Shown here piece by piece: positions 1 to 38,895 of a DNA stretch of 64,000 bases. The stretch is from Mustelus asterias. Its lineage: Eukaryota. Below the pieces are notes generated by a model. It worked only from the letters and a program-made list of their open reading frames with translations. It did no database searches and was not told the DNA's origin. Each line of letters opens with the position of its first letter. The first letter of the stretch is position 1. Made by a program: the position numbers and the translations under genes. The stretch covers positions 5,456,001-5,520,000 of the forward strand of contig NC_135830.1 of NCBI RefSeq assembly GCF_964213995.1, given 5' to 3'.

Positions 1-73
1 CCCCTTGTCACTCAATGATATTATGATACTGAATCACCCACTATAAACATCGGCGGGGTTACCATTGGCTAAT

Positions 74-912
74 AAGAACATAAGAACATAAGAAATAGGA
101 GCAGGAGTAGGCCATCAAGCCCCTCGAGCCTGCCCCGCCATTCAATAAGACCATGGCTGATCTGATAGTGGTTTAGTTCCACTTACCTGCCCGCTCCCCA
201 TAACCCTTAATTCCCTTATTGATCAGAGATCTATCTACCTGTGACTTCAGCATATTTAACGAGGTAGCCTCCACTGCTTCAATGGGCAGAGAATTCCAGA
301 GATTCACTACCCTCTGAGAGAAGAAGTTGCCCCTCAACTCTGTTCTAAACTGACTCCCCCTTATTTTGAGACTGTGTCCTCTAGTTCTTGTTTCCTTTCT
401 AAGTGGAAAGGATCTCTCTGCCTCTACCCTGTCTAGCCACTTCATTATCTTATATGTCTCTATAAGATCTCCCCTCAGCCTTCTAAACTCCAACGAGTAC
501 AGGCCCAATCTACACAATCTCTCCTCATAAGCTAACCCCCTCATCTCTGGTATCAACCTGGTGAACCTTCTCTGTACTCCCTCCAAAGCCAATATATCCT
601 TCCGCAAATAAGGGAAATAAAATTGCACACAGTACTCTAGTTGCGGCCTCACCAGTACCTTGTACAACTTCAGCAAGACCTCCCTGCTTTTATACTCCAT
701 CCCCTTCGCAATAAAGGCCAACATTCCATTTGCCTTCTTGATCACCTGCTGCACCTGCAAACTGAGTTTTTGCGATTCATGCACAAGGACCCCCAGGTCC
801 CTCTGTACAGTAGCATGTTGTAATTTTTCACCGTATAAATAATAGTCCATTTTACTATTATTCCTTCCAAAGCGGATAACCTCACACTTGTCAACGTTAT
901 ACTCCATCTGCT
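74..912 (-). mobile_element. CR1 LINE, 5'-truncated (RT C-terminus and 3' tail)
   Basis: ORF 173..916 with CR1 ORF2 motifs (KCEVIRFG, RPQLEYCVQF, RLRGDLIETYKI, FFSQRVVNLWNSLP); (TTCTTATG)n tail; empty site at ~17520. Confidence 0.95.
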
Positions 913-919
913 GCATTAT

Positions 920-1530
920 AATCGCTGCATTAACTAGGTATATAAATGCTCCGGCTAGAATATCAGGTCAGCCTGCTTTGAGTAACCCACCTCCTGACTC
1001 CCCAAACCTGTGCACCACCTACACGACACAAGTCAGGAGAGTAAAAGGGTTCTCTCCACTTGCTTGAGTAAGTGCAGCTCAAACAAAATTCAAGAATCTT
1101 CATACCATTCAGGACAAAGCCGCCGGCTGGACTGGCACAGCATTTGCAAATGCTCAGTCCCTCCACCACAGAGAGCAGCATTATGTACCATCTACAAGTT
1201 TCACTTCCGAAACTCACCGAAACTCCTTACGCAACACCTTCCAACCACACGACACCTACCATCTGGAAGGACAGGGGTAACAATTACCAGGGAATATCAC
1301 CTATAAATTCCCCTCCAAGTCAGTCATATACCTGACTTGGAAATATATCGTCCTTCCTTCACTATCGCTGGATCGAAATCCTAGAAGTCCCTCTGCAACA
1401 GCACAGTGTGGGTACCAGCACCACCGGTTCTGCAGCAATTCAAGAAGGTAGCTCACCACCAGCTCACTAAGGGCAATTAGGTATGGGCAACAAATGCTGA
1501 CTGAGCCAGCAACGCACGTATCCATTAAAT
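920..1530 (+). mobile_element. Older L2/CR1-superfamily LINE 3' fragment
   Basis: Same family as 46890-47510; paralog at 17410-18140; continues from 1-73 across the CR1 insert. Confidence 0.7.
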
Positions 1531-4500
1531 TAAAACTTAAACGATTAATGTTTATGAATGGATGATAACTTATGAACAAAATTGTGTAACTTTGTGAATG
1601 GATGGCAATTGGTGAAAATAAATACCAACTTTCTGAACATTTATTACCTTCTCTTTCTCTGCCAGAATATAGGTTCCGTTCCACAGGAGACTCATCATTC
1701 AAAAGCATCACACTATCCGAAGACAAGGTCGACAGAAGAGGCGGCAACATCTGCAGCTGTATCTCAATCATAGCATCATGGGAAAGGCCTTTGATAGGAT
1801 GACAATTTTGTTACTCATCTGCTTGAAGACCGGGATTAACCTGAAGCACAGTGTTGTGTTTGTGTCGGAAGATATACGTATCATAACCATACCTTCCTGA
1901 ATCTAAATAAGACATTCGACACTAGCATCAGAGCAGAGACTACAAGATTTGGGGGAACTAGGCTCTCCAACAAAAATTCCTCGGTCTTATTCATGACACA
2001 GAAAACGACAATATACAACCACAACTAATAGCTTCATGGGCAACACTTGCCGTTGAATCAATCTCTCAAAAATTGCCCATCGAGTCTGCACCGAATCTCT
2101 GACAGAGTATCTGAGCCAAACCCTTTCCCCTACCCATTCCCCATAGCCCCACACATTTACCATGACCAATCCACCTAATCTGAACATCTTTGGATACTAA
2201 GGGGCAATTTAGCATGGCCATTAGAATGTATTCCATACTTATTAGTTGAATTCAAATTCCATCAGCTGCAATGCTCCGATTTAAATCCCTGTCCCCACAT
2301 CATTGTCCTGGGCCTCTGGATCACTGGGCCAATTAAATTGATATTACGTCACCATCTGCGCAAACAATAAATGAATGCCTGTCTTGATGCAGGAATGAAT
2401 GACAGTTGAATGAATGATAGTTGGATGAATGACAGTTGGATGCCTGAGTATTTTGATTGAGGAACCAGTGAATGGATTGATAGATGCATTGTTAAATGGT
2501 ACTGAAAGATGTTGTTCTACATTCCCATATTTGTACTTCACTGGTCCATAAATTGAAACAGCTCCTTTATCCCATTTCTGTCAGTCTAATAACGTCAATA
2601 TTTCGAGAGGTTCTGGGAGAAATCCAACCCTAGTTTCGAGGGAGCTAGCAAGCTGATCCTCACGAAAAGAAGAGGGGATTTTCCTGCAGCACGGATGGTT
2701 CATTTCTCTGCTGATGCTGAATATTCATATCCAAGATCGAAAGAGGGAACATGATTTGGCTGAGGATGGAGGTTTGTAATATTTGAAACATGTGCAGCAA
2801 ATCACTCACCATGCCCTCACCCAAATAAATGAAGGTAACAGGCTGTAAAATAAATAATGTGGCAACAGATATATTGTGAAACTCACTGGATAACTACAAG
2901 TGTTACATTATTTCCCAAAACTGTGTAATAATGAATCGGGATTTAAAGATTCAGTAAAATCATATTTGGTGCAGGTAGTTTAATTTGTATGATTACTTTG
3001 GAAATCATCACACCAGTTATGATTCAGGAGTTTAAAGCGCAGAGTCTGCTGGGTAGCTACTCATGATCCTCGGTCTGTATTCATTCAATTTCCAACTGAA
3101 TTCTGGGACAGATTTTATCCTTGGTGACAAAAAGGTGTCAATAAATGTTAATATCAATAAATTATTCAAAGCAAAGTTGTTTAGAAGGAAATACTGGAAA
3201 CAAACAGAAAATGCTGGAAAATCTCAGCAGGTCTGACAGCATCTGTGGAGACAGAATAGAGCCAACGTTTCGTTTTTGGATGACGCTTCGGCAGAGTATT
3301 CCTGATGCGTTGGAGAGATCATCATTGTTTCTAACAAGGTGTCAGAGAAGCTGCATAACTTTCCTGTGAAATGGGAATAGTTCAAATAGATACTGTTTAA
3401 TTATATGCACTATTTCGAGCCACACACAAGTTGCATCAATTTACATACCGATCCCAAAAATCATCAACTTCTCCATGCTAACTAACCTAATCAACATCTC
3501 AATCGCTAACTATATCCTAATCCCTTTCCACCTCATCATTTCCCAATGTCATCACTCTCTTCAATTTCCCCCAAATAAAAAAAAAGGGTCATCCCGACTC
3601 GAAACTTTGACTCTGTTCTCTTTCCACAGATGCGATCAGACCTGTGGAGATTTTCGGAATTTATTGCTTTTGTTTCAGTTTCTAGAATCCGCAGTATTTT
3701 CCATTTATCAGAATGCTGAATATAATTGGTGAAATAATTGTTTATCTATATGAATTGATGTTAATTGGTGAATTAGAACAACCCCGCCTGGATATTCCCC
3801 TCCAAGACGCTTATAAACCTGACTTGGACATATATTACCGCTCCTTTACTGTCGCTGGGTCGGAATCCAGGAGAACCCTTCCTAACAGCACTGTGGGTGT
3901 ACCTACACTGCAGATTGTGCAGCGGTTCAAGAAGACGGCTAACCATCAGCTTACCGAATGCAATTAGCAATGTGAAATAAATTATAGCTTAGACAGTCGC
4001 CCACCTTCCATCAAGTAATTTTAAATAGACTAACCTTTGTGAATGAATGAGAATTGGTGAATGCATTTATTAAATTGCGAATGGATGGTCATTGGTGAAA
4101 ATAATTACTATCTTTCTGAACATTTATGACATTCTCCTTATTTGCTGGAAGATTTGAGGTTTGTAGTTTATTTATTAATGTCACAATGGGAATCAGGGGG
4201 AACAGAGTCCACTGCCTGAGTCACGCTGAGCACAAAGGAAGATGGTTGTTGATGGTCAATCATGCCAGTCACACGCATTGCTGCAGGATTTCTTCAGGTA
4301 GTGACCTAGCCCCAAGCTTCATCCTTCATCAAAGTTCAGAAGTGGGATTTTCACAGGTGATTGCACAAAGTTCCGCACCAGTTGTGACTCCTCAGTTACT
4401 GACACAGTCTGTGCCCATATGCAGTAAGAGTTAGAAAACATTCAGTCATTGGATAATGAATGACAAGGAACATTCATGCACCACAAGTGGCAGGCAATGA

Positions 4501-5454
4501 CAGTCTCCAATGAGGGAGATTCCAAACCACTCCCCATGACATTAAATGGCATTGCCCATCGCTGAATTCGCCCACTATCAACATCCTGGGAATTATAATT
4601 CGTGAAAATCTGAACGGAGACAGACGTTTAAATCATGTGGCCACAGGAGCAGGTCAGACGCTCGGAGTTCTGCAGTGAACAACGCACCTCCTGAATTCCC
4701 AACTCCTATCCATCATCTACAAGGCAAAAGGCAGGAGTATGAACAAATATCACAGAACAGTAAAGCACAGGAACAGGCCCTTCGGCCCACCAAATATGTG
4801 CCGACACAAATGATTGAATATTCTCTACTTGCCTGACTTGTGCCACTCAAAAACTCAATGTCATTCTGGAGAAAGTAGCTGGCTCGAAGAACACCCCACC
4901 CACCAGCTTCCCAAAGCCTGCCGCCATATTCTCAAAGGAAATCATGGTTTGACAACAAAAGCTGACTTTCCCAGTGACATCAAATCACATGAAACAATTT
5001 TAAACATACCATATCTCTGCCTATATTCAGCTAGCTTCTGCGTCTGTCTATATTACAGTAGGCTGCGCCTGGATCACATTCCAGGAGGTCATGTCTAAGC
5101 TATTTCCTACACTTGGCTCAATATCAGGTGTTCATATATGAGACACAGGCCCTGTTTATATTATAATTTCTAAGTTATGGCTGTACTGAGCCATGCTTCT
5201 GCTGATCCGACAAGAGGCCGTGTCTCAATTCTTACTGCCTCAGAACATTTGCCACTGCATATTAAACTGGAGCAACTGCTTCATGCATGACACATGGTTC
5301 TGTCACAGATATTATGCTAAGAGTTCATTAGATTTTGATAAACTCGATCCTGTTTACGTTAATGCTGCACCAGTCCATGTGTTTATTTATTTAAGACTAT
5401 GTCACGTCTCAGCTATAATTGCATTTTGCAATACCTCCTAATTGCTGCATTGTC

Positions 5455-5760
5455 CGTATCTCAGTGTGTATCAGTCTAGGCCCTGTACCAGTAATTATTA
5501 CAAATAAACTGGGCTCTGTCTCAGTTTACATCAGTCTAGGTGCTGTATCAGTAATCATTACTAATACACTGGACTCTGTCTCAGTTTACATCAGTCTAGG
5601 TGCTGTATCAGTAATCATTACTAATACACTGGACTCTGTCTCAGTTTACATCAGTCTAGGTACTGTATCAGTAATCATTACTAATACATTGGACTCTGTC
5701 TCAGTTTACATCTGTCACTGTCCTGTATCTATTAGTAATTATTATTAATGCACTTGACTC
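5455..5760 (+). repeat. 60-bp minisatellite
   Basis: Unit tcagtttacatcagtctaggtgctgtatcagtaatcattactaatacactggactctgtc, about 5 copies, three nearly identical; more diverged paralog at 24520-24800. Confidence 0.92.
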
Positions 5761-6879
5761 CGTCTCAGTCTAAAGAAATTTAGGTCCAGTATCATTAATT
5801 ACTGGGCTCTGTCTCAGTTTATATGCACAAGCTCCTATGTGCAGTAAAACCGCACTAGACACTGTCTCAGTTTTATTTTCCTCGACATTGTCATATATCT
5901 TTGAAATGTTTGTTTCATGGGATGTGGGTGTCACTGAAAAGATCAGCATTTGGCCTTTGAACATCCCCACATGGCACTCGGAACGAACCCATTTCTATTT
6001 TGCTGGATCAGGACCCCGTTTATGTTAAATTAGAGTCTGTCTCTGTTAATACACTGCTAGACTAGAAATCAGTTTATATTGCACTAGCCACACTCTCTGG
6101 TTAAGTAATATTTGATCCTGACCCTGTACATATTTCACTAGACTGTGTTAGTGTTATGCCTGCACTTAACTTTGCCTCTATTTGAATTATGTCTGCATTT
6201 CTCCGCGGTTCTCGAGAAGAAGAGATATTATGTTGGATGAAAAACAGTGGTCTCTGGCAGGATTCTGAAACAGGCAGTGTTGGATCGACAGTATTTGGTC
6301 GGTGTGGGCTTCCAGTGCTGAAGGACCTGTGCCTCTGCAGTAACTTTTCTTGTTCTTTGTTCTGTGTTGACAGTGCATGCTATACAGGTCTTAGTATCCA
6401 TTTTCAATGCAGTCAGCAGAAGTAGATTTCAGATAACACTGCTTCTTTTCCAGTGCCCAAGACCTCATAGCATTCCATGTTCAGGAGGATGCAGAGAATT
6501 GTGTCCCCCTAAACACTTTCCTCATTACTGGCATTGTCCAGTGCAGTAAAAACTGAGACCATGTCCAATTCAATATAAACGTGGATAAGGTCAAGTGCAG
6601 GAATAAGACTCCATCTATTTTAATACAAACAGACAGGTCTAAATTAATACAAACTGACACCGCGTCTAGTTTGAAATAAACTGAAACATGGTGATGCATA
6701 ATACAAACAGGGACAAGGTCTAATTTAGTATAGTTAGAGAAAGCATCTGGTTTAATATGTGTAGAGATAGGGTCTAGTGCAACATAAACCGAGGTATGAC
6801 CTTATATAATAGAAGCTGATGCAGGGTAAATTTACTGTCTAATAAAGAGACTGGTTCAACCCCCATGAAATGTGGAGAG

Positions 6880-7510
6880 ACGGCCTACTGCCCCATCAAA
6901 AATTCACAGGACAGGAGTAACAAGGGGTTAGCTGTTAAGTTCCCCCATGCATTGCCAAATTTAACACTCCCAAGGCAGGAATAGCATGATTTAGATACAA
7001 AGTGAACCTCCCTCTCACTATCAAAATCAAACATTCCTGGAAAAGGTAGATTGTCTAGAAACAGAGTGAAACTCCCTCTACAAAGTCTGCTCAAACACAA
7101 TAAAGACATACAGACCAGGGACTCTCTTCTCGGTAAAACCACTTCTGCATTTTTCCTTCAGAGAATCGGGAGGCAAGTTTGAATTGGTGTTCGGTAGAGG
7201 GGGAAGATCCCTCGGCACAGTCTCATAAAATACACTCAGGTTAGGTACAGCAGAGATTAGATACGGATTAAATATCCCTCTACAAGTAATATCAAACATT
7301 CAAAGGGCAGGTACGTGAGTTTAGATGCAGAGTAAATATTCCTCTACACTGTCCAGTCAAACAGTCCAAGGGCAGGGATAAATACAGGGAAAATTTATTT
7401 GGTGCTGCCACATCGAATCCTTGTTACGAGGTACAACACAGGTTCGATACAGAGGAAAATGTATAAAATATCCCAAGATCATAGAATGCTCAAGAGATCT
7501 TTTAGAGTAA
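6880..7510 (+). repeat. Degenerate ~60-70-bp tandem repeat
   Basis: Recurrent aaacactcc(c)aaggcagg..tagcatg..ttagatacagagtaaa..tccctctaca units; paralog at 25790-26080. Confidence 0.7.
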
Positions 7511-7829
7511 ATCTCCCTCATGGATTCCAATTCATTGCGTTGCATTCCTTACTACTCTGGCTGAGAGAATACATTGGGCAACATTGAATTCAGGTTGTGG
7601 AGGGAAGACGATGAACTATCGTGAAGAGACAAGACACAGAATCAGAAGGAGAAAGACAGAGAGAGAGAGATGAAACACAGGGAATTTCCACGAACACATT
7701 TGCCGTTTTATCATATTTCGGGATCAGAGGGATTCTTTCCTAATTCTGAATATAGATATTGTCATGATTTTTTCCTCGTATAATTGATGAATAACTAATG
7801 TATAAAAACAATCATTTCTGGAATCCGTT

Positions 7830-8035
7830 GATCGATTTGCATGTTTGTCTTATTTCTGTGCTGTGTTGGTGGGGAAATATTTGTTGTGTTTTTGTCAGTC
7901 AACAGTCTAATCTGGGATTTCTATTTCTGTGTTTATTTACATAAATACCTCACTGTTTACAATGAAATGTTCATGGCAGCAAAAACAGATAAACCGTCAT
8001 TTATTCATTAGTTTCAACTCAAAATAGCGGTTATT
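7830..8035. promoter_or_regulatory. Candidate conserved enhancer with octamer motif (copy A)
   Basis: ATTTGCAT at 7835-7842; roughly 14 differences over ~200 bp from 27300-27505 by manual alignment, clearly more similar than the flanking duplicated DNA; frame-breaking indels argue non-coding. Confidence 0.45.
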
Positions 8036-9065
8036 TTAAGAATATTAACAGTTGGTTCAAAAGGAATAGAAATCTTTTTTAACATACATTACACCAGATG
8101 CTATTTAATTAAATGAATAAATACATTCTATTTAAGAATTTGTCCTGAAAGTTCTGATGTCACAATAAATAAAGTATCTGTGAACAGGCTGGTATTCCAC
8201 TGAATGTTAATTTGATTGATGATCTAAATTGCTTCAACTAGACAAGTTAAAACAAAGAGAACTGATGCGTGAAATATTCCTGTCATAATTCCTCACACGA
8301 GGGAAGAATAAAAAATCCAGTGTGGTTATCACTAAGTGACACAAGTAGCATTGCTGCCTCACAGTGACAGGGAAGCGGGTTCGATTCCAACCTTGGGTGA
8401 CTGTGTGGTTTTTCACATTCGACCATGTCCATGTGAGTTTCCTCCGATGCTCCGGTTTCCTTCCACAGTCCAAGGATGTACGGCTAGGTGGATTGGTATG
8501 ATAAATTGCTCCTTTGAGTCCAAGGATGAGCAACGTAGAATCACAGAGTCCCTACAGTGCAGAAGGAGACCATTCGGTCCATCAAGTCTGCACTAGCTGT
8601 CCAGCAGGGCATCATTCCCAGGCCCAAGGTGGATTGGCGATTCTAAATTGCCCCTTAGTGTCCAACGATGTGTAGGTTAGAGACATTAGCCGCTGAATAT
8701 GTCTGGTTGTCGGGGTAGGGTGAAGATAGGATGCTCTGCTGGAGAGCAGCTGCAGACTTGAGGGATCGAATGGCCTCCTACTGCACTGGATTCTATGATT
8801 TTATGCTGCTATGATCAGGCAGAGGAATGAATATATTCGCATTAATCTCTAGCACTTCCAAAGTATTACAACTTTCATTTTGGTAGAGCTTACATTTATA
8901 CAACACTTTACCCGACTTCATGTAGTCCCAAAGATCTTAAAACTTACTGATGTACCTTTGCTGAATTTAGTCACTGCTATCATGGTGCAAATACAACAGG
9001 TAATGTACTGCAGCAAACTCCCACAAACCGAGATGTGATAAATTGCCAGTAAATTTGTGATTTTA

Positions 9066-9661
9066 AGACCATAAGACATAGGAGCGGAAGTAAGGCCATT
9101 CGGCCCATCGAGTCCACTCCACCATTCAATCATGGTTGATTTCAACTCCATTTACCCGCTCTCTCCCCATAGCCCTTAATTCCTCGAGAAATCAAGAATT
9201 TATCAATTTCTGTCTTGAAGACGCTCAACGTCTCGGCCTCCACAGCCCTCTGTGGCAATGAATTCCACAGACCCACCACTCTCTGGCTGAAGAAATTTCT
9301 CCTCATCTCTGTTCTAAAGTGACTCCCTTTTATTCTAAGGCTGTGCCCCCGCGTCCTAGTCTCCCCTGTTAATGGAAACAACTTCCCTACGTCCATCCTA
9401 TCTAAGCCGTTCATTATCTTGTAAGTTTCTATCAGATCTCCCCTCAACCTCCTAAACTCCAATGAATATAATCCCACGATCCTCAGACGTTCATCGTATG
9501 TCAGGCCTACCATTCCTGGGATCATCCGTGTGAATCTCCGCTGGACCCGCTCCAGTGCCAGTATGTCCTTCCTGAGGTGTGGGGCCCAAAATTGCTCACA
9601 ATACTCCAAATGGGGCCTAACCAGTGCTTTATAAAGCCTCAGAAGTACATCCCTGCTTTTG
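9066..9661 (-). mobile_element. CR1 LINE 3' fragment
   Basis: ORF 9142..9609 CR1 RT C-terminus; empty site at ~27990. Confidence 0.93.
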
Positions 9662-10098
9662 TTTGAAGAATCAGTATTAAGGTAGGATATTGGGGAGATC
9701 AGCCTTGCTCTTTAGAATTATATCAATGAGATTTTGCATCCCGGCATTGATTTTAAATGTGAATCTGGTTCTCTCTCTGCTGATGCATACTGATCTGCTG
9801 AGTAGCATTTGTGTTGCTTTAGTTTTAGATTTCCAGAATCGGCAGCACTTTACACTGTTGTTATTGATCCTCCGGATGTGATCATCACTGACAAAGCCAA
9901 CATTTAGTTGTCCCTGCTGAGAAGGCGGTTGTGAACCACCTTGTTGAAACCTGCCCTCGGGATGATTTTATTATTTGTTTTTCCATAGCATCTTTGATAC
10001 AACTGACTGGCCTGCCCGGCAATTTCAGTCGTGGTTAGGAGTCATTTTCATCATAGGAGAATTGGAGTCTGTGTAGAACAGACAGGGTAAAGATAGAA

Positions 10099-10597
10099 AT
10101 CTTCGGTTTTCAGTTATTTCCAAAGAGAAGATGTCGTTTGAAGTATAAAAGCAAATTACTGCGGATTCTGCAATTGAAACCAAAAGAGAAAATGCTGGAA
10201 ATCTCAGCAGGCCTGGCAATATCTGTGAGGAGAGAAAATAGCTGACATTTCGAATGTTTTGACAAAGGGTAATCTGGAATCGAAAAGTCAGTTCTTCCCT
10301 CTCCTTACAGGTGCTGCCAGACTTGCTGAGATTTTCCAGCATTTTCTCTTTCCGTTGTTTGAAGTGCATTTGGGCGGAGTAAATTGATTCTGAATCCCTG
10401 GGGGGGAGGAATTGTAGGTTGACCCAAGACTATCGTACTGAAGAAGACACTGTAAACACTGTTCAGGGACCTGTCGGACCCGGAACATCCAGATACTGCT
10501 AATATTGGACGCGTTGGCTTTGCAGTCAGTCTCAAAGAGTTTCAGGGACGCCCAGTTTCTGCCTCTCGCTGACTCAGCACAACCTCCGATTCCACAC
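10099..10597 (-). pseudogene. IGHV: Immunoglobulin heavy-chain variable (shark IgM/IgW-type VH) pseudogene, V exon
   Basis: Minus-strand translation (G)VESEVVLSQREAETGRP*NSLRL[frameshift]CKANASNISSIWMFRVRQVPEQCLQCLLQYDSLGSTYNSSPPGIQNQFTPPKCTSNN, resuming after an insertion as TSNDIFSLEI/LKTED. Matches the shark VH framework pattern (VVLTQPEAETG.PGGSLRLTCK...WM.WVRQVPGQGLEWL...I..RFT.SKDTSNNIF.LE...LK.ED). In-frame stop, frameshifts, acceptor mutated to CAA, YYC and RSS missing. Confidence 0.85.
10145..10353. mobile_element. Palindromic (MITE-like / Penelope-terminus-like) insertion within VH FR3
   Basis: Inverted arms aaagagaaaatgctggaaatctcagcagg...cttgctgagattttccagcattttctcttt; flanked by a 12-bp direct repeat gtcgtttgaagt (10133-10144) / gttgtttgaagt (10354-10365). 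Related sequence at ~3200-3700, 9750-9850, 46760-46870, 56740-56820. Confidence 0.7.
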
Positions 10598-10639
10598 TTG
10601 TAAAAATATCTAAAAGCCGATGAAAATAAAACGCCACGC

Positions 10640-10940
10640 ACTCCAGACATACTCTGTCACCTTTTTCCATCGGGATCAAGATACAAAAGTCTGAGGGCAC
10701 GTATAAACCGACTCAAAAACAATGTATTTCCTGCTGCAATAAGGCGTTTGAATGGACCTACGTCGCATTAAGTTCATCTTTCTCTACACCCCAGCTATGA
10801 GTGCAAAATTACATTATTCACTCTCTCCCTTCCTTCCCTATATACGTTATGCTCTGACTGTATAGTGCGCAAGAAACAATAATTTGCACTGTGTACTAAT
10901 ATATGCGATAATAATAAGTCAAATGAAATCAAATAAAATG
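10640..10940 (+). mobile_element. Rex1/Babar-like LINE 3' end inserted in the VH leader intron
   Basis: Homologous to 48060-48360, ending in an aataa/aaatc tail. Confidence 0.7.
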
Positions 10941-10994
10941 TATCAAAAACACCAAGGATTATTCCTGGTGAATTGATTGCTGACAATGGAACAT

Positions 10995-11043
10995 TCCAGA
11001 GACAGACTAACACCGAGGGAGTGACAGTGAGATCCATTGTCAT
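10995..11043 (-). pseudogene. Probable decayed leader exon of the VH pseudogene
   Basis: ATG-initiated hydrophobic stretch MTMDLTVTPSVLVCLW lies ~100 bp upstream of the V exon once the Rex1-like insert (10640-10940) is removed; no intact GT donor at the expected position. Confidence 0.4.
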
Positions 11044-11354
11044 GTCTCTGCTAATCCAAGAGGTGAAATTGCATTTGAGCATCTGTTACAGAAAAGAAAC
11101 AATTTCAGTGTAAATTAAGTGCCTTTATTTCTGCACCTCTTCACAAGGGAATGGACATAAACAGATGACATTACATTATCAGGGTAAAGCCGTCAGTCTG
11201 ATTTGCAATAATTCTGTATCTCTGACATATTACAGCGAAATATGATTCATTAGAAGAATTAATATCGATTTATGTAACTTCATGCTGGGATGATTGTGTT
11301 TCAGGTGTGGATAGCTATCACTGTAATTTGGGACTGGATATAAGAAGAAGGGAA

Positions 11355-11685
11355 GCAGTGACCCAGCGTTATTATCGCGAGACAATTAATCCACAAACTC
11401 AACTAATGTTCTCAGGACCCGGCTTCGAATCCCGCCACGGCAGATGATGGAATTTAAGTTCAGTAAAAACGTCTGGAATTAAGAATCTACTTATGACCAT
11501 GATATCATTGTCGATTGTGTAAAAACCTATCTGGTTCATTAATGTCATTTAGAGCAGGAAATATGCCGTCCTTACCTCATCTAACCTACTTGTGATTGCA
11601 GAGCCACAGCAATGTGTTTAGCTCTCAACTGCCCTCGACAGTGGGTGGGCAATAAATGCTGATCAGCCAGCGGCACCCATGTCCA
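11355..11685 (+). mobile_element. tRNA-derived Deu-domain-like SINE (SacSINE1-like)
   Basis: B-box-like ggcttcgaatcccgccacggcagatg, central atctggttcattaatgtc..aggaaa..gccgtccttacc, tail gggcaataaatgctg; minus copies at 13200-13550, 28430-28735, 54810-55020. Confidence 0.6.
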
Positions 11686-12984
11686 TAGAATCCCTGCAGT
11701 GCAGAAGGAGCATATCGGGCCCGCATTGACAACGCTCTTCCCCAGGCCCTATTCCCATCCCTGCTAATTCACTTGATTCTATGGGACAATTCATCATCGC
11801 CAAACAACCTAAATGGCATATCCTTGGAGAATGTGCAGACTACACACAGACAGAGACCCATTCCGGGAATTGAACCATCAGTCCTTGATGCTGTAAAGTA
11901 GCAATGGTAACCACTGTGCTACCGTGCCGCCCACTAATAAATTAACAAAATAAACTCCTTATCTGATACAATGTTACACCTTATATTTCCCCAACAGCTC
12001 CTTAACCCTGTGAAAATTAACGGTGAAAGAAAACTTCTTGACTTATAATTAAGCATTGAGTTGACAGAGAAACATAAAATTGACATTGACTTTTGACAAA
12101 GAAGCTAATGAATTAGAACGGAACACGGCAATCAGGAAAGTTCTCCTTCAGCATCCAAATCATGACAGATCATTGTATTGGCGAGCAGCTGGTATTGGGA
12201 ACACAGGATATCAGGACTTTGCGGCATAATGCACAATATCACAAGAATAAATACTTCATCTTTCACTGAACCAGGTTATGAACTGATCATTTCTTCACTC
12301 ATTGGCAGTTATGAGAGGGACTGTTAAATAATTGAAATCAGATTATGCTGTACAACAGAACACGTTATACATCAGATATAAGTTTTTAATGAGGTGCAGA
12401 ACATTGAGAATATGCCCAAGTCCCCGCTGTTCAAGGCAGATATATGATTTTCTTTTAGTTTTAATTATTTTCATTTTTGTGCCTTTACACTGATCTCATG
12501 AGACGGAGGGATTGGGGACATCAACATACGTTGGTCATAAAGAGGCTTTAATTGTTGGAAGGACATTTCTTTGGAAGCTATACAAATGAAATAGCATCAA
12601 GTCAATTGACTAGTTTCCGATACTTTTTAATCACATAATGGACAGTGCATTCATATAAAATATTTGCTTCGAAGAAAAAACATTTAAAATGTGCCTTCCT
12701 TTTGGGAATAAAACATTTATTGTATAACTGACGAAGTCCCATGTTATCCTTACAGATTCACGTTAATCTGTCCGACGCAGCATTTGGCAACTGTCCAGGC
12801 TGCTGCCAAATACCCAAAAATATTTACAGGAAGCATCTGAGGGTGTTTGTTCGGTAAATCAAAAACCTGTTTCCTCAGTACTGAACACTTGGCTGCAAGC
12901 CAACTTCAAACTCTCAGCATTGTCAATGAGGCCTATTTATAAACAAATCTACCCAGCAACAGTACTGGAGGCAATTTAATTATT

Positions 12985-13100
12985 TTTAAGTTGCAAACAT
13001 CTATGAATGTTTCCCATTTCTTCGGAAAAGAAAGTATTCAGCTTCTCCGGCACCTTGTTAGCAACAATGATGAATCTCTCCAACACAACAAAACATTGAT
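12985..13100 (+). mobile_element. Possible ancient Gypsy-type LTR retrotransposon RT remnant
   Basis: Frame KLQTSMNVSHFFGKESIQLLRHLVSNND resembles the RT motif KC.F...V.FLGHVVS.DG; nothing else recognisable. Confidence 0.25.
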
Positions 13101-13749
13101 GGATAGATGTAGAAAAAATACCGGCAGATTATGAGAGTTGATTCAGAGAGGTGATATATTTTATACTAGATAAACATGTATGCTTGTGTTTTATTTCACT
13201 TCATTCTTCCATGGGACGTCAGAATCTCTGGAAAGGCCAACATTTATTCCCTTTCCCTAATTTCTCTTGAACTGAGTGGTATGCTAGGGCATCTCAGAAG
13301 GCATTGCCCAGTTAGTTATATTGCTGTCCGTCTGCAGTCACATCCTGATGAGACCAGGTAGGGATGGCAGATTTCCTTCATTGGGGAATCAGAGAGGTTT
13401 ACCTGGTCGCTGTCAGTATGTATTCCAGATTTATTGATTGAATTCAAATTCCACCAGCTGCCAGGGTCGGATTTAATCTCGTGTCTCCACATCATTGGCC
13501 TGGGCTTCTGGATTACTGGTACACTGGCATTAATATTACGCCACCATCTACCCAGCAATAAAGGAATACTTGCGTTGATGCAGGGATGAACGATAGTTGG
13601 ATGCCTGAATGTTTTGCTTCAGAAATCAGAGAGTGGACGGATGGATGGGACGATAGCTGGTCCTAAAATATGCTGTTCTACATTCGCATATTTGTGATTT
13701 ACTACTTCAAAAATCGAAGCATGTCCTTTATTCCAAGTGTGTCAGTATA

Positions 13750-15770
13750 TAAGACCATAAGTCCAGAAGACATAAGAAATAGGAGCAGAATGAGGCCACT
13801 CGGTCCATTGAGTCTGCTCCCGCCATTCAATGATCGCTGATATTTTTCTCATCCATATTCTCTTGCCTTTTCCCCATAACCACTGATCCTCTTATAAATC
13901 ACAAACCCATCTATCTGTGTCTTAAAAACACCCAATGACCTGGCCTCCACAGCCTTCTCCGGCAAGAGATCCACAGATTCGCCACACTCTGGCTGAAGAA
14001 ATTCCTCCTCATCTCTGTTTTAAAGGATCGTCCCTTTAGTCTGAGGTTGTGCCCTCTGGTTCTAGTTTTTCCTACGAGTGGAAACATCCGCTCCACGCCC
14101 ACTCTATCCAGGCCTCGCAGTATCCTGAAAGATTCAATAAGATCTTCCCTCATCTTTCAAAACTCCAACGAGTACAGATCCAGAGGACTCAACCGTTCCT
14201 CATACAGCAAACTCTTCATTTCAGCAATCATTCTTGTGAAACTCCACTGGACCCTTTCCATGGCCAGCACATCCTTCCTTAGATATGGGGCCCAAAACTG
14301 CTCACAATACTCCATTTGGGTCTGACCAGAGCCTTGTACAGACTCAGAAGTACATCCCTGCTCTTGCATTCTGGCCCTCTCGACATGAATGCTAACATTG
14401 CATTTGCCTTCCTGAACCTGCACTTTAACCTTAAGAGAATCTTGAACAATGACTCCCAAGTCCCTTCGTATTTTTGATTTCCTCAGCATTTTCCCATTTA
14501 GAAAATAGTCTATGCCTCCATTCCTCCTTCCAAGAGCATAACCTCACACTTTTCCAAATTGTAATCCAGCTGCCACATCTTTGCCGACTCTGCTAACCTG
14601 TCCAAGCCCTTCTGCAGCCCCCCTGTTTCCTCAATACTACCTGTCCCTCTACATATCTTTGTATAATCTGCAACCTGAGCAACAGTGCCTTCAGTTCCTT
14701 CCTCCAAATCGTTAATGCATACTGTGAAAAGTTGTGTTCCCAATACTGATTCCTGAGGCACACCACTAGTCACCGGCTGCCATCCTGAGAAAGACCCCTT
14801 TATTCCCACTCTCTGCCTTCTGCTAATCAACCAATCCTCTATCCATGACAGGACCTTACCCTTAACACCATGTGCACTGAACTTATTTAACAGTCTCTTT
14901 TTCGGCACCTTGTCAAAGGCCTTCTGGAAATCTAAATAAATCATGTCCACTGGCTCTCCTTTACCTAACTTCCTTGCTACCTCCTCAAATAACTCTAACA
15001 GATTTGTCAGATGTTACCTCCCCTTCACAAAACTGTACTGGACTCAGGCCTACTTTATCATGCACTTCCATGTACTCTGCGGTCTCATCTTTAATAATGG
15101 AATTTAAAGTCTTGCCTCTGAACGAAGCCAGGCTAACCAACCTATAATTTCGCGTCTGCTGCCTCCCTTAAACCATCTGAAACAGTGGTGTTGCATTCGC
15201 TACTTTCCAGTCCTCTGGTACATTCCCTGCCTCCAGTGATTTCTGAAAGACCACCACCAATGCTTCCACAATTTCCTCAGTTATCTCTTTTAGAACCCTG
15301 CAGTGTAGCCCTTCCGGTCCAGGTGATTTATCCACCTTCAGACCTTTCAATTTCCCCAGAACCTTCTCCTTAGTGATGGCCACTACAGCCACCTGTGCCC
15401 CCAGAATCTCCTGGAGCTCTGGCATTCCACTGGTGTTTTCCACCGTGAAGACTGATATAAAGTAACTATTCAGGTCCTCTGCCATTGCTTTGTTTCCTAT
15501 TATTGCTTCTCCAGTCTAATTTTCCAGTGGTCCAATGTCAATTCTTGCGTCTTTCTTACCTTTTTTTATATTGAAAAGTACTCCCCCTGTCTTATTTTAT
15601 ATTACTAGCTAGCTTACACTCATATTTCATCTTCTCCTCCCCTTATTGCTTTTTTAGTTGTCCTCTGCTCGCTTTTAAATACGTCCCAATCCTCTGGCTT
15701 CCCACAAATCTTTGCCGCTTTGTATGCTTTAACTTTTGCTTTAATGCTGTGCTTGACCTTTATGCTGTGC
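13750..15770 (-). mobile_element. CR1 LINE, degenerate ORF2 fragment
   Basis: Broken ORFs 13911-15485 with YLDFQKAFDKVP, GVPQESVLG, KSPGPEG, PEDWKVAN. Confidence 0.92.
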
Positions 15771-15881
15771 TGCAACTTTTAGTCCTTCCAGATTTTCTCG
15801 GTGAATTCAATCCCCGAGATATCGGGAACAAATGAACTAAGAGCAGTCTGATTTTTTTTCCATCTGCTGACGGTGACTCGA

Positions 15882-16446
15882 GTCATAGTCATAGAGGTTG
15901 AGAGCATGGACACAAGCATTTCGGCCCAACTTGTCCATACCGCCCTTTTTATTAGCCACTAAGCTTGTCCCAATTTCCCGCATTTGGCCCATAACCCTCT
16001 GTACCCATCTTACCCATGTAACTGTCTAAACCCTTTTTAAAAGACAAAATTGTACCCGCCTCTACCACTACCTCTTGCAGCCTGTTCCAGACACTTGCCA
16101 CACTCTGTGTGAAACAATATCCCCTCTGAACCATTTTGTATCTCTCCACTCTCATCATCAACCTATGCCCTCTCGTTTTAGACTCCTCTACAATTGGGAA
16201 AATATATTGACTATCGAGCTGATCTATGCGCCTCATTATTTTATAGACATCTATAAGATCCCCCCAATCCTCCTACGCTCCGGAGAAAAAGTCCCAGTCT
16301 ATCCAGCCTCTCCCTACAACTCAAACCATCAAGGCCTCGTAGCATTCTAGTAAAACCTTTCTGCATTCTTTCCAGTTTAATAATATCCGTTCTATAATAG
16401 GGTGACCAGAACTGTACACAGCATTCCAAGTGTAGCCTCACCGATG
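15882..16446 (-). mobile_element. CR1 LINE 3' fragment
   Basis: ORFs 15952..16236 and 16241..16468 are CR1 RT C-terminal pieces. Confidence 0.9.
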
Positions 16447-16671
16447 TCTTCAAAATCTTCAAATCCAAGATGGAAAGAGGGATTAGGTTGAGGGGGAGGA
16501 TTGTAATATTTGGAACATATGGCCCTTTCTAGTGCAACAAATCACTCAACATATCATCACCTAAATTAGTGAAGGTAACAGGCTAAAAAATTAATGAGGC
16601 AATTGAAATGTTGTGAAACTCACTGGACAGATCCAAGTGGTAAATGACTTTCCAGTACTGTGTAAGTGTGC

Positions 16672-17000
16672 AAGGGCGACACGGTGTCATATTGGTTAGC
16701 CCTGCTGCCTCACAACGCCAGGGACCCGGGTTCAATTCCGTCCTCAGGTCACTGTCTTTGTGGACTTTGCAGTTTCTCTCCTTGTCTGTGTGGCTTTCCT
16801 CCGGGTATTCTAGTATCCTCCTGCAGTCGGAACATATGCAGTTCAGGTTGATTGGCCATGCTGAATTAACCCTTGTGTCAGGGGTATTAATGGGGTTAAT
16901 ATGAGGGGTCACGGGAATAGGGCCTGGGTAGGATTGAGGTCGCTCCAGACTCGATGGGCCCAGTGGTCTCATTCTGCACTGTAGATTCTTTGTTCTATGA
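16672..17000 (+). mobile_element. tRNA-derived V-SINE (HE1-like) with CR1-type tail
   Basis: Head ggttagccctgctgcctcacaacgccagggacccgggttcaattcc, V-like core, tail gactcgatgggcc...ctgcactgtag...ttctatga. Other copies ~8325-8805, 11685-11930(-), 44955-45190, 49052-49370(-), 58235-58385, 63790-64000. Confidence 0.8.
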
Positions 17001-18846
17001 ATAATTAATCTGGATCTTAAGATTCTATAACGTCATATTAGATATTATAAATTATATGTGACATTAGATACAGGTACTTTCAGTTCTACAGTCACTTTAA
17101 AAATGGTTACACACTCCAGTTATATATCAGGGGTTTGTGTGTGATGATGAGGTGATTACGTGTCAATAAAGCGCAGAGGCTGCTGGGTCGCTGCTCATTA
17201 TCCTCGGTCTGATTTGATTCGACTTCCCGCTGAATTCTGGGACAGATTTGATTCTTTGGTGACAGAAAGGCCAAAGTGACCTCAATAAATTTGAATCTCA
17301 ATAAACTACAATAAATAAACTGCAACTATATTTGTACCAATAAAATGCTGAAAATAATTTGTGAAATATTTATTTGTTTTTGTGATTTGCAGATTATCAG
17401 TAATATTAGCGCCAGGCAATGACCATCTCCAAAAAGAGAGAATCTACCCATTGCTCCTTGTTATTCAATGATATTACGATACTGAATCACCCACTATGAA
17501 CATCGTCGGGGTTACCATTGGCTAATCGCTGAATTAACTAGATATATAAATGCTCCGGCTGGAATATCAGGTCAGCTTGCTGTGACTAACTAACCTCCTG
17601 ACTCCCCAAACCTGTCCACCACCTACAAACAACAACTCAGGAGTAATTGAGTTCTCTCCACTTGCTTGAATGAGTGCAGCTCAAACAACATTCAAGAAGC
17701 TTTATAGCATTCAGGACAAAGCAGGCGGCTTGACTGGCATAGCATTTGCAAATGCTCACTCCCTCCATCACCGACAAACAACAGCAGCATTATACACCAT
17801 CTACAAGTTTCACTTCAGGAACTCACCAAGACTCATTAGGCAACACCTTCCAACCACAGGACTGTTACCATTTGGAAGAACAGGGGTAAGAGTTACCTGG
17901 GAATATCACCTGTAAATTCCACTCCAAGTCAGTCATATAACTGACTTGGAAAAATATCGCCCTTCCTTCACTGTCGCTCGATTGAAATCCTGGAATACCC
18001 TCTGTAACTGCACTGTGTGAGTACATACACCACAGGCTTCGCAGCAATTCACGAAGGTAGCTCGCCACCAGCTTACTGAGGGCAATTAGGGATAGGCAAC
18101 AAATGTTGACCTTGCCAGCAACGATCACATCCCTTAAATTAAAACGTAAATATATTAATGTTTATGAATGGTTGATAACTGGTGAACAAATTTATGCAAC
18201 TTTGTGAATGGATGGCAATTGGTGAAAATAAATACCAACTTTATGAACATTTATAATCTTCTCTTTCTTAATGGAAGATAGCATGCGCGCCACAGGAGAT
18301 GCATGATTCAAAAGCACAACACTACCGGGAAAAAAAGCCGCCAAAGGACACTGCAACAACTACAGATATATGTACATCATTGCCAGCGACACATCTGAAA
18401 ACATTCATCTGTTTGAAGATCCGGATTATCCTGAAGCACAATGTTGTGTTTTTAATGGAAGATTGACTCTGGAAAGTATCTGCTTCATATGCCCTATGTA
18501 CTTATCTTTACCTTCGTCAATCTCATCAAGACATTCAGCACTTGTAGCAGAGCAGGGACTACCATGCTTGGGAAAAAGTCGCACTCCATCAAACCTCCTC
18601 GGTCTCATTCATGACACAGAAAACGACAACATAAAACCACAATTGGTAGCTTCATGGGCAGCACTTGTAACAGAGCCAACCTCTCAAAAATTGTCCTTCT
18701 CAGTCATCAACAAAGGTGACATTTGAAAAAGAAACCATTCTGAAATTGATGTGTTTACTCTGTGTCTATTTTTTATTTTAAATGGAAGGACGTCGGTTAT
18801 CATTGTGAAATTGATTTGTAAACAATATGACGTTTTTCAGACAACG

Positions 18847-18884
<38 letters not shown>

Positions 18885-19384
18885 TTTTCCTTCAATTTAA
18901 GACTCCATCTTTGCTTCCTGGGGGGTTTAGAAGACAATTACCCCAACTATCTTTCAGATGAAATGAAGAACAAACAAATTTTCCTCAAGACCATGTTTGC
19001 TGAACTGAACATTAAAGGTCCCATTGTCTCCAACAGCGCCCTGGTCAGCATTCCTCCTTCTAACCAAAATGAACAAATATACATTACCGTGGATTGAGGC
19101 ATTATGCTCTGATGCTGACCTGGCAACATAGGAACAGAGGAGCAGAAGTTCCCCTCCAAGCCACTCACCATCCTGACTTGGAAATATGTCGCCGTTCCTT
19201 CACAAACGCTGAGTCAAAATCCTTAAATTTCCTCCCTAACGGCATTGTGGGTCTACCCACAGAACATGTACTGCAGCGATCCAAGAAGGCAACTCACCAT
19301 AACCTTCTCAAGGGCAACTAGGTATGGGGAATAAATGTTGACCAGCCAGCGAAGCCCATGTCCCAAGAATGAATAAAAAAAGCA

Positions 19385-20050
19385 GACGCAGGCCATTCAG
19401 CTTCTCGAACTCGCCCCCCATTCATAAGATCATCGCTGATCTGTGGCCAAACCCTATGTACCTGCCCTTGGCCCATATCCCTTGATACCCCTGTTCAATA
19501 AAAAAATCGACCTCAGACATAAATTTAATAATTAAACCAGCACCCACTGGCCTTTGCGGAAGAGAGTTCCTAAAGTCCACCACTCTCTGGGTGTAGAAAT
19601 ACTTTCTATCAACTCTCCTGAACGGCTTGGCCCTGTTTTTGTTTCATTATGGCCCTTTATTCTAGAGCCTTCAACTGGTGGAAAAAAAATTATCCGCACT
19701 CCTCAAGCTTCTGAATTCGAGAGAAAAAGTCCCAATTTGTCTAATTTCTCCTCGCAACGTAACCCCTGAAGGCCAGATATAATTCTTGTGAACCTGCATT
19801 CAACTCCCTCCAAAGCCAAAATCTTTGCAAAGGTGTGGTGCCCAAACCTGTGCACAGTACTCCAGGTGGACTCTAACCAGGATTTTGCATAATTGCAGCA
19901 TAACATCTGCATCGCTATACTCCAGTCCTGTAGATACAAAGGCCAAAATTCCGTTGACCTGCTTGACTATTTTCTGCATCAGTTCGTGGCATTTTAAGAA
20001 GCTATTCACTTGAAGTCCCAAATCTCGCTGGGCATCCACTAAATTTAATT
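19385..20050 (-). mobile_element. CR1 LINE 3' fragment, degenerate
   Basis: ORFs 19703..19939 and 19800..20039 (QRDLG, VHLEYCAQVWAP). Confidence 0.85.
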
Positions 20051-21009
20051 TTGTGCCTTCTAAAAACTACCTTGATCTTTCATTTGGATTATTTGACTTT
20101 TTGTGGCATTATCTAAGCCATTATGAATATTGTAAATAATTGAGACCTCAAGACAGATTCCTGCGGGACACAACTTAACCTGTATTATTCAGCAACGTAC
20201 ATCTCATCTATAATTCGTTGCACCTTAAATTTGGGCACTTTCTGCAGAAGGGGATGTGGTCTTACATTTATGAATGTGAGTTCTTTGTATATTACTGTCA
20301 TAAATCGTACCTGACAGCGATATATTTACAGTAACTGTAATTGCAGAATTTTGCCAGCAGATGGAATTGGCATCTTGATGGTTTACATTACATGAAGAAG
20401 GCACTGCCTCAATAAAGACTAACTGGACATTAACTTTGCAGTTCTGCCACATGCAGTCCTGAATGGTGATGGACATTTAAACAAGTAACTGCAGCAGGAG
20501 CCTCAAACGAAAGGGAAAAGAAACAAGACTGAAACAATTGCTCCTATGTTCAGGCAGAAGATGTTCCATCTCTGCCTTCCCCTGATGCCCCGAACATCAC
20601 AGATGCCAGTCTCCAAGGAGGTCAATTCATTCAACATGCTACGAGAGGACACAGGTTTAAGGTGCTGGGTGGTAGGTACAGGGGAAATGTTAGGGATAAG
20701 TTTTTCACACAGAGGGCGGTGGGCGATTGGAATCGGCTGCCGTCAGTGGTGGTGGAGGCAAACTCAATAGGGTCTTTTAAGAGACTCCTGGACTCCTGTA
20801 CATGGGACTTAATAGGATGGAGGGTTACAAGTAGGCCTAAAAGGTAGGGATATGTTCGGTACAACTTGTGGGGCCGAAGGGCCTGTTTTGTGCTGTAGTT
20901 TTCTATATTTCTATGTTTCTATAACATTGAGGATAGGAACAGGAGTAGACCATTCAGCCCCTGGAGCCCGCTCCGCCATGCAATATGATCATGATTGATC
21001 TGTGGCCTA

Positions 21010-22570
21010 ACCCTGTGCTGAAAGCATTGGATACTGCAAAGATTATGGATCCTGACAATATTTCAGCAATAATAATAACGGTTTGTGCTCTGGAGCTAGC
21101 TGAGCCTCAGCCAATCTATTCAAGTACAGCTACATCACGGTCACATACACAACAGTGTGAAAATTGGCAGACGTGACCTGTTTCTGAAGGTAGGACAAAC
21201 CCAACCCGACCAATTACCGCCCAATGCGTCCTCACTCGATCAACGTAATGGTAAGTATGAAGGATCATCTAAAAAAGTAATAATAATATAATAATATCAA
21301 TACTGCTACAACTACAAATAATAGTAATCTGCTCAATGATGCTCTGTTTGGGTCCCACTCGGAGCACTCAGTTCCAGAAATCATTTAAGCTTAGTCCAAA
21401 TCTAGTGGAAATAGCTGCTTTAATGAGGTGAGGTGAGAGTGCCTGCCCTCGGCATCAACGCAGCAGTTGACCGATTGTGGCATCAATAAGCCCGAGCAAA
21501 GCTGCAGTCAATGGGGATCCGGGGGAAAACAAAACATTCCACTGGCTTCAGTCATACCGAGCACAGAGTAAGATGGCTGTGGCTGTTGAAAGCCAATCAT
21601 CTCAGTCACAGGGCATTTGCTGAAGGAACTCCTCAGGATAGTGCCCTCGGCCTAATATTCACGCTTCAATACAAGCTCAGAAGTGGGATGTTCACTGATG
21701 ATTGCACGATGTTCAGCACATTTACAACTTCTCAGATACTGAGGCAGTCCGTGTCCGTCAGCAGAAAGACTTAGAAAACATTCAGGCTTTGGCTGTGAAG
21801 TGGCATGTGACATTCACGCCACCGGGGTGACAGGCAATGACCCCTTCAGGTAACGGAGATTGCAATCATCTCCGCTTGCCATTAATTGAATGACTACAGC
21901 TGAAACCCCACTATCATCATTCTGGGAATTGCCATTGATGGAAAATTGAACTGGGACAGCCATGTCAATAATATTGCTACAAAAACAGGTCAGAGGCTGG
22001 GAATTGTGCGTGGAGTAACTCACCTCCTGACTTCCCAAACCCTATCCATCATATAAAGGCAAAAGTCAGGATTGTGATTCTCCACTTGCCTGGCGCGTGG
22101 TACTGAAGCAACAACCAAAAAGCTCGAAACCACCCAGCAAAAAGCAGGCGGCTGGATGAACACCCCATCAACCACTTTAAACATTCACTCTCTGCATCAC
22201 AGATGTACAACTCTAGCCGTGTGACCCATTTACAACTTGTGTAGCAGCAACATAATCCTTTGGTAGCAACTTCCAAACACATTAACTCTGACACTTAAAA
22301 TGACATGGGCAGCAGAGGCAGGAGAATACAATTACCTGCAAATGCCCATAAAACCTCCACACCGTCTTGACTGGGATCTATATCACTATTTTTTCAGTGT
22401 CAACGGATGAAAATCTTGCAACTCCCTTCCCATCAGCACTGTATGTGTACTTACTCATAGGGAATGCAACGATTTAAAAAGAGGGCTCACTGGCACATTC
22501 TCAAAGGAAAAAATAGAAGTGGCAACAAATCCTACGTTACCAGTGACAGCAAAACCTCATTAAATGATTT
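21010..22570 (+). mobile_element. Older L2/CR1-superfamily LINE, degenerate RT and 3' end
   Basis: Remnants of ..PQDSALG and MFTDD (ORF 21511..21774); tail shared with 920-1530; paralog at 4180-4990. Confidence 0.7.
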
Positions 22571-22661
22571 TGAACATGTCATATATCTGATTACGTTCAA
22601 CTAGCCCCCACGTCTGTTTGCATTGCAACAGGCCATGTCCCAGCCACATTACAGCATGTCC

Positions 22662-23840: not shown

Positions 23841-23969
23841 ATAATCCATATGTCCTGTCTCTGTTAGTTCTCTACTCGGCTCATTATCAGTTATTCATAA
23901 GTGAAGCCAAAGCCTGTTTACACGATGGTTTCTGAATTATGACTGTGCTGAAATATGTTTCAGTTAATC

Positions 23970-24255
23970 AGGGCGGCACGGTGGCACAGTGCCAGGGACC
24001 CGGGTTCAATTCCCAACATGGGTGACTGTCTGTGTGGAGTCGGCACGTTATCCTTATGTCTGCGTGGGTTTCCTCCGGGTGCTCTGGTTTCCACTCACCG
24101 TCCGAAAGAGGTGCTGGTTTGGTGCATTTTGGCCATGCTAAATTCTCCCTCGGTGTACTCAAACAGACACCGGAGTGTGACCACTCGGGGTTCTTCACAG
24201 TAACTTCATTGCAGTGTGAATGAAAGCCGACTTATGACACTAATAAATAAGCTTT
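23970..24255 (+). mobile_element. V-SINE variant with a different (non-CR1) tail
   Basis: Same head/core as the HE1-like SINE but tail ...ggagtgtgaccactcgggg.ttttcacagtaacttcattgcagtg...gacactaataaa. Other copies 29120-29435(-), 30160-30440, 36610-36890, 53970-54230. Confidence 0.75.
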
Positions 24256-27172: not shown

Positions 27173-27299
27173 CCGTGTCCTTATATTTTGTGATTAGGGG
27201 GAATCTTTCCTAATTTTGAACATTGATAATCATAGCTTGTTTTGTGCATATAACTGATGAAAAAATATGCCCAAAAAACAATCACAACTGGAATCCAAT

Positions 27300-27505
27300 G
27301 ATTGATTTGCATGTTTGCCTCTATTTCTGTGCTGTGTTGATGGGGAAATATTTGTTGCGTTTTTGTCAATCAATAAATCTAATCTGGGATTTCTATTTCT
27401 GTGTTTATTTCCATAAACACCTCACTGGTTACAATGAGATGTTCATGGCAGCAAAACCAGATAAACCGTCATTTATTCATTAGTTTCAATTCAAAATAGC
27501 GGTTT
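27300..27505. promoter_or_regulatory. Candidate conserved enhancer with octamer motif (copy B)
   Basis: ATTTGCAT at 27305-27312; paralog of 7830-8035. Confidence 0.45.
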
Positions 27506-38863: not shown

Positions 38864-38864
38864 C

Positions 38865-38895
<31 letters not shown>

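Follow-up and report, generated by a model that had tools for sequence, protein, structure and literature searches.

A VH pseudogene, probably of IgM type, in a repeated block of IgM clusters and TCR V segments of Mustelus asterias

The VH remnant and its surroundings

The window, that is, the whole stretch of 64,000 nucleotides analysed here, corresponds to C71:5456001-5520000 in the 3.68 Gb genome of Mustelus asterias, C71 being a 20.4 Mb contig that bears V-set and C1-set matches along most of its length. On the minus strand, positions 10099-10597 hold a dead VH segment of the IgM type, whose parts are collected in Table 1 together with the other features of the window. A preliminary description had reconstructed a VH remnant by reading across a stop, frameshifts and insertions, and this reconstruction was borne out by sequence comparisons. 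An intact IgM V located 18 kb to the left of the window matched it by tblastn (E 2e-8, 264 kb searched) and by blastn, with 70.5% identity over 268 nt (E 7e-29) and, beyond the insertion in FR3, 80% over 50 nt. A DNA profile made from 12 intact genomic IgM, IgW and TAILV V segments recovered two parts of it, 10353-10589 (E 1e-36) and 10100-10144 (E 0.003), and the longest open piece (10354-10524) matched antibody VH and VHH chains in the PDB (best E 2.6e-6). A Pfam search of the pieces matched no family. Thus, the failure of BLAST and HMM searches to find a VH, which had been named as a ground for abandoning the reconstruction, did not occur, since both the genomic V segments and the profile matched it, and the likeness to VH from FR1 to FR3 places the remnant among IgH V segments as a pseudogene.

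Table 1. Features of the window (positions counted from its first letter)
Position	Strand	Feature	Basis
1..51989		part of a duplicated block	reverse-collinear with C71:6.98-7.08 Mb of the same genome (G000)
9715..10098		repeat replacing the 3' end of the V exon and the RSS	72% over 388 nt to 28044-28422
10099..10144	-	3' part of the VH pseudo-exon, to LKTED, with a 5-nt deletion	similarity, profile
10145..10365		palindromic interspersed repeat, 221 nt, inserted in FR3	reverse self-match, 73% over 207 nt
10366..10597	-	5' part of the IgM-type VH pseudo-exon (leader part 2, FR1 to FR3)	similarity, alignment
10609..10940		repeat of ~330 nt in the leader intron	5 other matches in 264 kb, 74-85%
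10941..11043	-	what is left of an IgM leader intron; most of the leader exon is gone	75.5% over 98 nt to the intron of an intact IgM V
11190..11349	-	remnant of an IgM V upstream flank	71% over 174 nt to the flank of an intact IgM V
45440..45955	+	TCR alpha/delta-type V pseudogene (leader, stop, frameshift, 23-spacer RSS at 45917-45955)	similarity
52047..52360	-	TCR alpha/delta-type V, open frame, 23-spacer RSS at 52047-52085	similarity

The lesions of the segment are numerous. FR1 is closed by a TGA at 10542-10544, the frame is shifted twice (by a 1-nt deletion near 10526 and by a 5-nt deletion before LKTED, 10099-10113), the AG of the splice acceptor has become AA at 10598, and CDR2 is 6 nt longer than in the intact neighbouring V. 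The insertion in FR3 is flanked by copies of a 13-nt target repeat starting at 10366 and 10145, alike in 11 of 13 letters, and partial copies of the inserted palindromic repeat occur elsewhere in the 264 kb; alignment returned the same coordinates for this insertion and for LKTED as the preliminary description. Both insertions that it reported are real, the second of them lying in the leader intron, outside the exon. In turn, the ATG at 11043, which had been taken for an intact leader, lost that standing when the alignment revealed that 64 nt are deleted there, taking away most of the leader exon together with its donor. The second cysteine and the RSS are missing from the 3' part: no 3' RSS with a 22/23 spacer was found on the segment, and the best candidate for a YYC motif or RSS in the 10 kb downstream scored 24, against a maximum of 28 in shuffled sequences (n = 30). 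Measured against a functional IgH V, with its leader, splice sites, open frame and both cysteines, the segment falls short, and, because the acceptor, the frame and the RSS are lost, its DNA shows it to be incapable of splicing, translation or rearrangement.

An intact IgM minicluster lies 28 kb downstream of the pseudogene on the same strand and comprises a V, two D and a J segment with correct RSS, as well as four C exons and a TM exon, the three C exons that aligned cleanly being 86-96% identical to a houndshark IgM. The V of this cluster, the nearest intact one, has shark IgM heavy chains as its named relatives (71-79%); near-identical database proteins were not counted as independent support. 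Beyond the cluster come further C-mu exons, a second set in inverted orientation, with no TCR module there. Between the pseudogene and the intact cluster, 4 kb to the left of the window, a sister pseudogene (C71:5451866-5452012, L010) ends after FR2; it shares with the window copy the FR1 stop and the intron insertion, and the two are 84% alike. The TCR V segment placed about 35 kb from the VH remnant in the preliminary description was located where expected and proved to be a pseudogene, with at least 40 copies at 92-100% among the matches listed. The TCR V near 52 kb is in frame, 30 nt shorter than its paralogs, and has 10 copies at 88-100%.

Other elements share the window. A LINE-type reverse transcriptase frame of 788 codons (34069-36435, minus strand) is matched at 99% by copies that lie 42 kb and 118 kb further left and has no counterpart in the block at 7.0 Mb; as judged from these matches, it is a young insertion. 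Between 55083 and 63716, five tRNA genes or copies exceed the Rfam threshold (Asn, Glu, two Gln), the one at 55084-55178 carrying a 22-nt loop insert. Positions 46527-46615 hold what we take to be a tRNA-Pro-like sequence, with an insert of ~18 nt in its anticodon loop, for which neither ARAGORN nor Rfam made a call. Two related 60-bp tandem arrays occupy 5459-5769 and 24622-24802.

Lineage of the VH remnant

The pseudogene was compared with the V segments of the same genome. Its DNA identity to the IgM V segments was 74-75% (eight of eight, local scores 260-276), while it reached 59-66% with TAILV-like V segments (n = 4) and 62% with the single IgW-like V used (local score 74), with no score above 122 in either group. 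The read-through protein followed the same pattern, with 51-53% identity to genomic IgM V, 31-39% to TAILV and 32% to IgW V. In these comparisons, the TAILV-like label denotes a V that precedes D-J-C and resembles the VH-like domains found in gene model P0002, and the IgW-like label is our own assumption, based on motifs that we take to be diagnostic. The intron and upstream flank of the pseudogene also resemble those of an IgM V gene, and an IgM D-D-J-C lies downstream of the segment, on the strand that both share.

In a tree of 18 rows, the pseudogene, on a long branch, grouped with the IgM V segments (support 84/95, not starred), and the TAILV-like V segments of this genome formed a clade of their own (99/98). 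AU tests rejected neither of the alternative groupings, that with TAILV (p 0.059) or that with IgW (p 0.090). A codon-position test did not discriminate, since the third-position excess was absent from intact IgM V segments too. Grouping with the IgH-like V segments found directly before TCR-delta D-J-C, which would mark a TAILV, was not observed (AU p 0.059), nor did the comparison with one IgW-like V place the segment with IgW. The pseudogene is read as IgM-type, rather than as a TAILV or an IgH V serving TCR-delta.

A block repeated through the genome

The VH pseudogene has at least 40 genomic matches at 91-100%, a lower bound, with 40 of 1861 candidates scored. Among the matches listed, a C-mu exon lies downstream on the same strand, at 23-45 kb, in 35 of 40 copies (five have none nearby), and the TCR pseudo-V lies upstream on the opposite strand, at 24-49 kb, in 20, the remaining 20 being without it. 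All 30 copies fetched carried the FR1 stop, the FR3 insertion, the 5-nt deletion and the loss of the acceptor, and eight of them the 1-nt deletion. The divergence among 25 distinct copies was virtually the same in the exon (0.055) as in the intron insertion (0.056). These shared lesions and the equal divergence of exon and insertion indicate that multiplication came after the death of the V, which was carried as a passenger. Some of the copies, lying on small contigs, may be alternative haplotypes.

The duplicated block takes in the IgM V-D-D-J-C cluster and extends leftward to a point about 36 kb outside the window; from there to 52 kb within the window it is collinear with C71:6.98-7.08 Mb in blocks of 1.3-11 kb at 91-99%. 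A misjoin between 11 and 45 kb, which the preliminary description had raised as an objection to its own reading, was rejected by this collinearity with a second block of the same contig, and not by reads: the existence of that block, at 91-99%, argues against a misjoin in the window. The proposal that Ig and TCR segments are intermixed was upheld by the collinear blocks; the two settings offered for it, the edge of the TCR alpha/delta locus or a mixed orphon, both failed. Mapping of the scaffold placed the nearest delta-type C exon 1.67 Mb and C-alpha 12.95 Mb away, so that the pseudogene is not at the edge of a TCR locus, and it is not an orphon because its unit is repeated at least 40 times. 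Its position at IgM clusters, with the TCR pseudo-V in the same repeated block, makes it a passenger of IgM-cluster duplication.

Other segments deserve mention. Open-frame TCR alpha/delta V segments with RSS are repeated amid the IgM clusters (L064, L068 and the group of L075, C71:15164857), the L075 group occurring in 13 places with equal Pfam score and frame length. Germline IgM V segments joined partly or fully to D or D-J, in several patterns, were seen at L076, L082, L089, L091 and L092.

Such a mixed locus has a published counterpart. In the elasmobranch antigen-receptor complex (AgRC), IgH clusters show linkage with TCR alpha/delta, and TCR-type V exons and also lone IgM V segments lie between the clusters (Flajnik et al. 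2025, PMC12227049, as far as its accessible text goes). The genome studied here agrees with it in the linkage of IgM clusters to TCR alpha/delta and in the TCR V exons and lone IgM V between clusters, and the catshark scaffold shown there has the order IgM, TAILV, TCR-delta. The presence of TCR V exons between IgH clusters is thus already published, and the pseudogene lies within that mixed locus; a fixed, repeated block of V pieces, in contrast, is not described in the same portion of that paper. The neighbouring IgM cluster resembles the nurse shark IgM minilocus (Malecek et al. 2008, PMC2435157, in the text available): 2 kb hold one V, two D and one J, a single C-mu belongs to them, more than 100 kb separate the clusters, and there are groups of pseudogenes. 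However, one VH per minilocus is reported there, whereas here one or two dead VH segments stand 14-28 kb upstream of the working V.

Delta-type constant genes, origin and significance

A search with the C part of the basking shark gene model P0002 yielded 19 exon-1 and 19 TM matches for a delta-type C, and a DNA search for the exon matched 19 of 19 candidates, three of them on C71 (at 7138099, 11043417 and 12270562) and 16 on other contigs (all together L116 and L121-L138). All 19 copies of exon 1 have an open frame bounded by CAG and GTAAGT splice sites, and they amount to 14 distinct sequences. Over 1 kb, 16 of the 17 copies compared were 96-100% alike, the type on C436 being 89-91% identical to those. 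The block at 7.0-7.18 Mb carries, on one strand, two VH pseudogenes, the IgM V-D-D-J-C, a NAR-TCR V-D-J with its supporting V, a further V, a broken TAILV-like V, a TAILV-like V, D, five J and C, the D being flanked by 12- and 23-RSS. In the sister block of the window, IgM, NAR-TCR, TAILV-like V, D, five J and the delta-type C thus follow the pseudogene copy, and an intact IgM V (23-RSS) stands 56 kb upstream of D-delta (12-RSS) on the same strand. The TCR part of a unit at 12.2 Mb is identical in order. Four of the 19 units were read completely, two with a free D and two with a V joined to D, with 3-5 J motifs each, and in these four the anatomy of a TCR-delta locus (a D with 12- and 23-RSS, few J and a C, with NAR-TCR and TAILV upstream) is present. 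Among the matches listed, a TAILV-like V lies 25-38 kb upstream of 11 of the 19 delta-type C exons, a NAR-TCR V upstream of 10, and a C-mu exon within 150 kb on the same strand of four.

The joined segments have features of their own. At L197:3720-3830 (C71, 11.02 Mb), a germline TCR V is fused to the 3' half of D-delta with its 23-RSS; this fusion and that at L209 lie directly before the first J, the fused V at L209 (C436, 213.7 kb) being the supporting V of the NAR-TCR cassette. At L201-L202 (C71:12229725-12229847) and L112 (7091239-7091300), the supporting V of the NAR-TCR cassette has behind it two or three 23-RSS in tandem, at a spacing of 61 nt.

Since the anatomy of the unit (a D with two RSS, few J and a C) is that of TCR-delta, the 19-copy exon is likely to be the TCR delta constant gene. 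Against this label, its database names, which are automatic, read 'alpha chain ... like'; PDB and Pfam matches do not separate alpha from delta. A reading as C-alpha was set aside on account of the D segments and few J before the exon and of the existence of a separate C, behind 34 J motifs and without D, at C71:18.37-18.43 Mb. This alpha candidate has two genome matches, 84% alike, the second at C546:240136, and its intron is filled with a long simple repeat; the J-alpha array region spans C71:18.13-18.43 Mb (L141-L160, L171-L190). On C71, the gap-free 236 kb leading up to the J-alpha array yielded neither V nor D nor delta-type C, and the 19-match DNA search gave no delta-type C on C546 or near 18.4 Mb. 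The 19-copy unit is therefore neither nested in nor adjoining TRA before the J-alpha array.

This arrangement departs in several respects from what has been reported. In the accessible portion of PMC12227049, Table S1 gives at most one delta-C and one alpha-C model for each of four species, from selected models, as opposed to 19 delta-type C exons in mini-loci here, and a further difference from the AgRC is that neither delta C nor D nor V turned up in the 236 kb ahead of the J-alpha array here. Shark TCR genes have been termed translocons (PMC6795676, in part), and IgHV-TCR-delta chimeras and Ig-TCR linkage are confirmed in the consulted parts of PMC5931798 and PMC3964593. TAILV and IgHV-TCR-delta rearrangement (Deiss 2019 and Criscitiello 2010, as cited in portions of PMC12227049, PMC6795676 and PMC5931798) have in common with this genome the presence of IgH-like V near TCR-delta D-J-C, and TAILV-like V segments do occur in the sister block; the window pseudogene differs from them in being of IgM type, without RSS and unable to rearrange. 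In newts (PMC12698447, partial text), TRD is likewise apart from TRA, with two TRDC-J-V clusters in one haplotype and a duplicated TRA, in contrast to ~19 loci in one complex interleaved with IgM clusters. In the literature collection searched, which excludes most subscription papers, nothing was found on multiple shark TCR-delta C loci.

Could the 19 delta-type C exons and the other copies be mainly an artefact of assembly, through unpurged haplotigs and mis-scaffolding? That 16 of the 19 exons lie on contigs below 3 Mb, and that some pairs are identical over 1 kb (C71 at 12.27 Mb and C850), would fit such an explanation. Nevertheless, the three copies on C71 have different surroundings, 14 distinct exon sequences require at least seven loci, and C-alpha has only two matches in the same assembly. 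In addition, the variants CC, AC and CG of a single codon (L116:8324-8325) in one short-read run match assembled paralogs, although that run may be the source of the assembly or a pool, so that it tests the assembly method only. Considering all this, an artefact is improbable.

As for the pseudogene itself, it is very probably a non-functional IgM-type V that arose as an upstream duplicate of a minicluster V and then became a neutral passenger of multiplied blocks of IgM and TCR V. The shared lesions and the distances suggest an order of events: an IgM V would have been duplicated and died (~25% from intact IgM V), acquired the FR1 stop and the intron insertion, been duplicated locally into two pseudogenes (~16% apart), and received the FR3 insertion and lost its 3' end, and, last, the whole block would have been amplified (0-9% between copies). 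In some blocks, the 3' end of a likely TCR-delta locus (NAR-TCR, TAILV, D, J, C) is carried along, and this would explain the 19 copies of the C exon. It is rather unlikely, yet worth considering, that the segment is instead the V of a second, older IgM cluster that lost its D-J-C by deletion. The 25% divergence and the longer CDR2 suggest a different IgM subfamily, and the repeat that cuts the 3' end could mark such a deletion, but no D, J or C remnant was found between the pseudogene and the intact V, and this question concerns origin only, leaving the present state unaffected. Very improbable, finally, is the derivation of the segment from a TAILV, or from another IgH-like V, that formerly served TCR-delta and then decayed. 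It is true that a delta-type C stands on the same strand 102 kb downstream of an identical copy of the pseudogene, that both loci might have been served by an IgM V placed upstream of D-delta, and that the AU test mentioned above did not reject the grouping with TAILV. Against this, the TAILV-like V segments form their own clade and lie 25-38 kb before the C exon in 11 of 19 copies, while the pseudogene is far closer to IgM V and has IgM C exons downstream, not delta C.

A broader model can be put forward tentatively, as quite possible though somewhat short of probable. In place of one translocon within TCR-alpha, this genome would have a TCR-delta made up of working mini-loci (V, NAR-TCR, TAILV, D, J, C), ~10-19 in number, whose multiplication went along with that of the IgM clusters, and the dead VH would mark the block. 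The known IgM-V/TCR-delta 'trans-rearrangements' would then be ordinary deletional joins within a block, because the intact IgM V and D-delta, with their 23- and 12-RSS, lie on the same strand at the distance given above.

While the pseudogene alone is ordinary debris, its value is that of a marker of a repeated block: the TCR V exons between IgM clusters belong, in this genome, to a single block that was copied many times, and do not stem from separate insertions. The TCR delta constant gene is usually described as one locus, and the 19 open-frame copies found here, likely delta, point to a multiplied TCR-delta locus that would be new if copy number and expression hold. If the 19 delta-type loci are real and used, a T-cell receptor would have adopted the cluster layout thought typical of shark antibodies. 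This would raise the question of how one T cell picks one delta locus, and it would provide a short-range route for chimeric chains of IgM V and TCR-delta.
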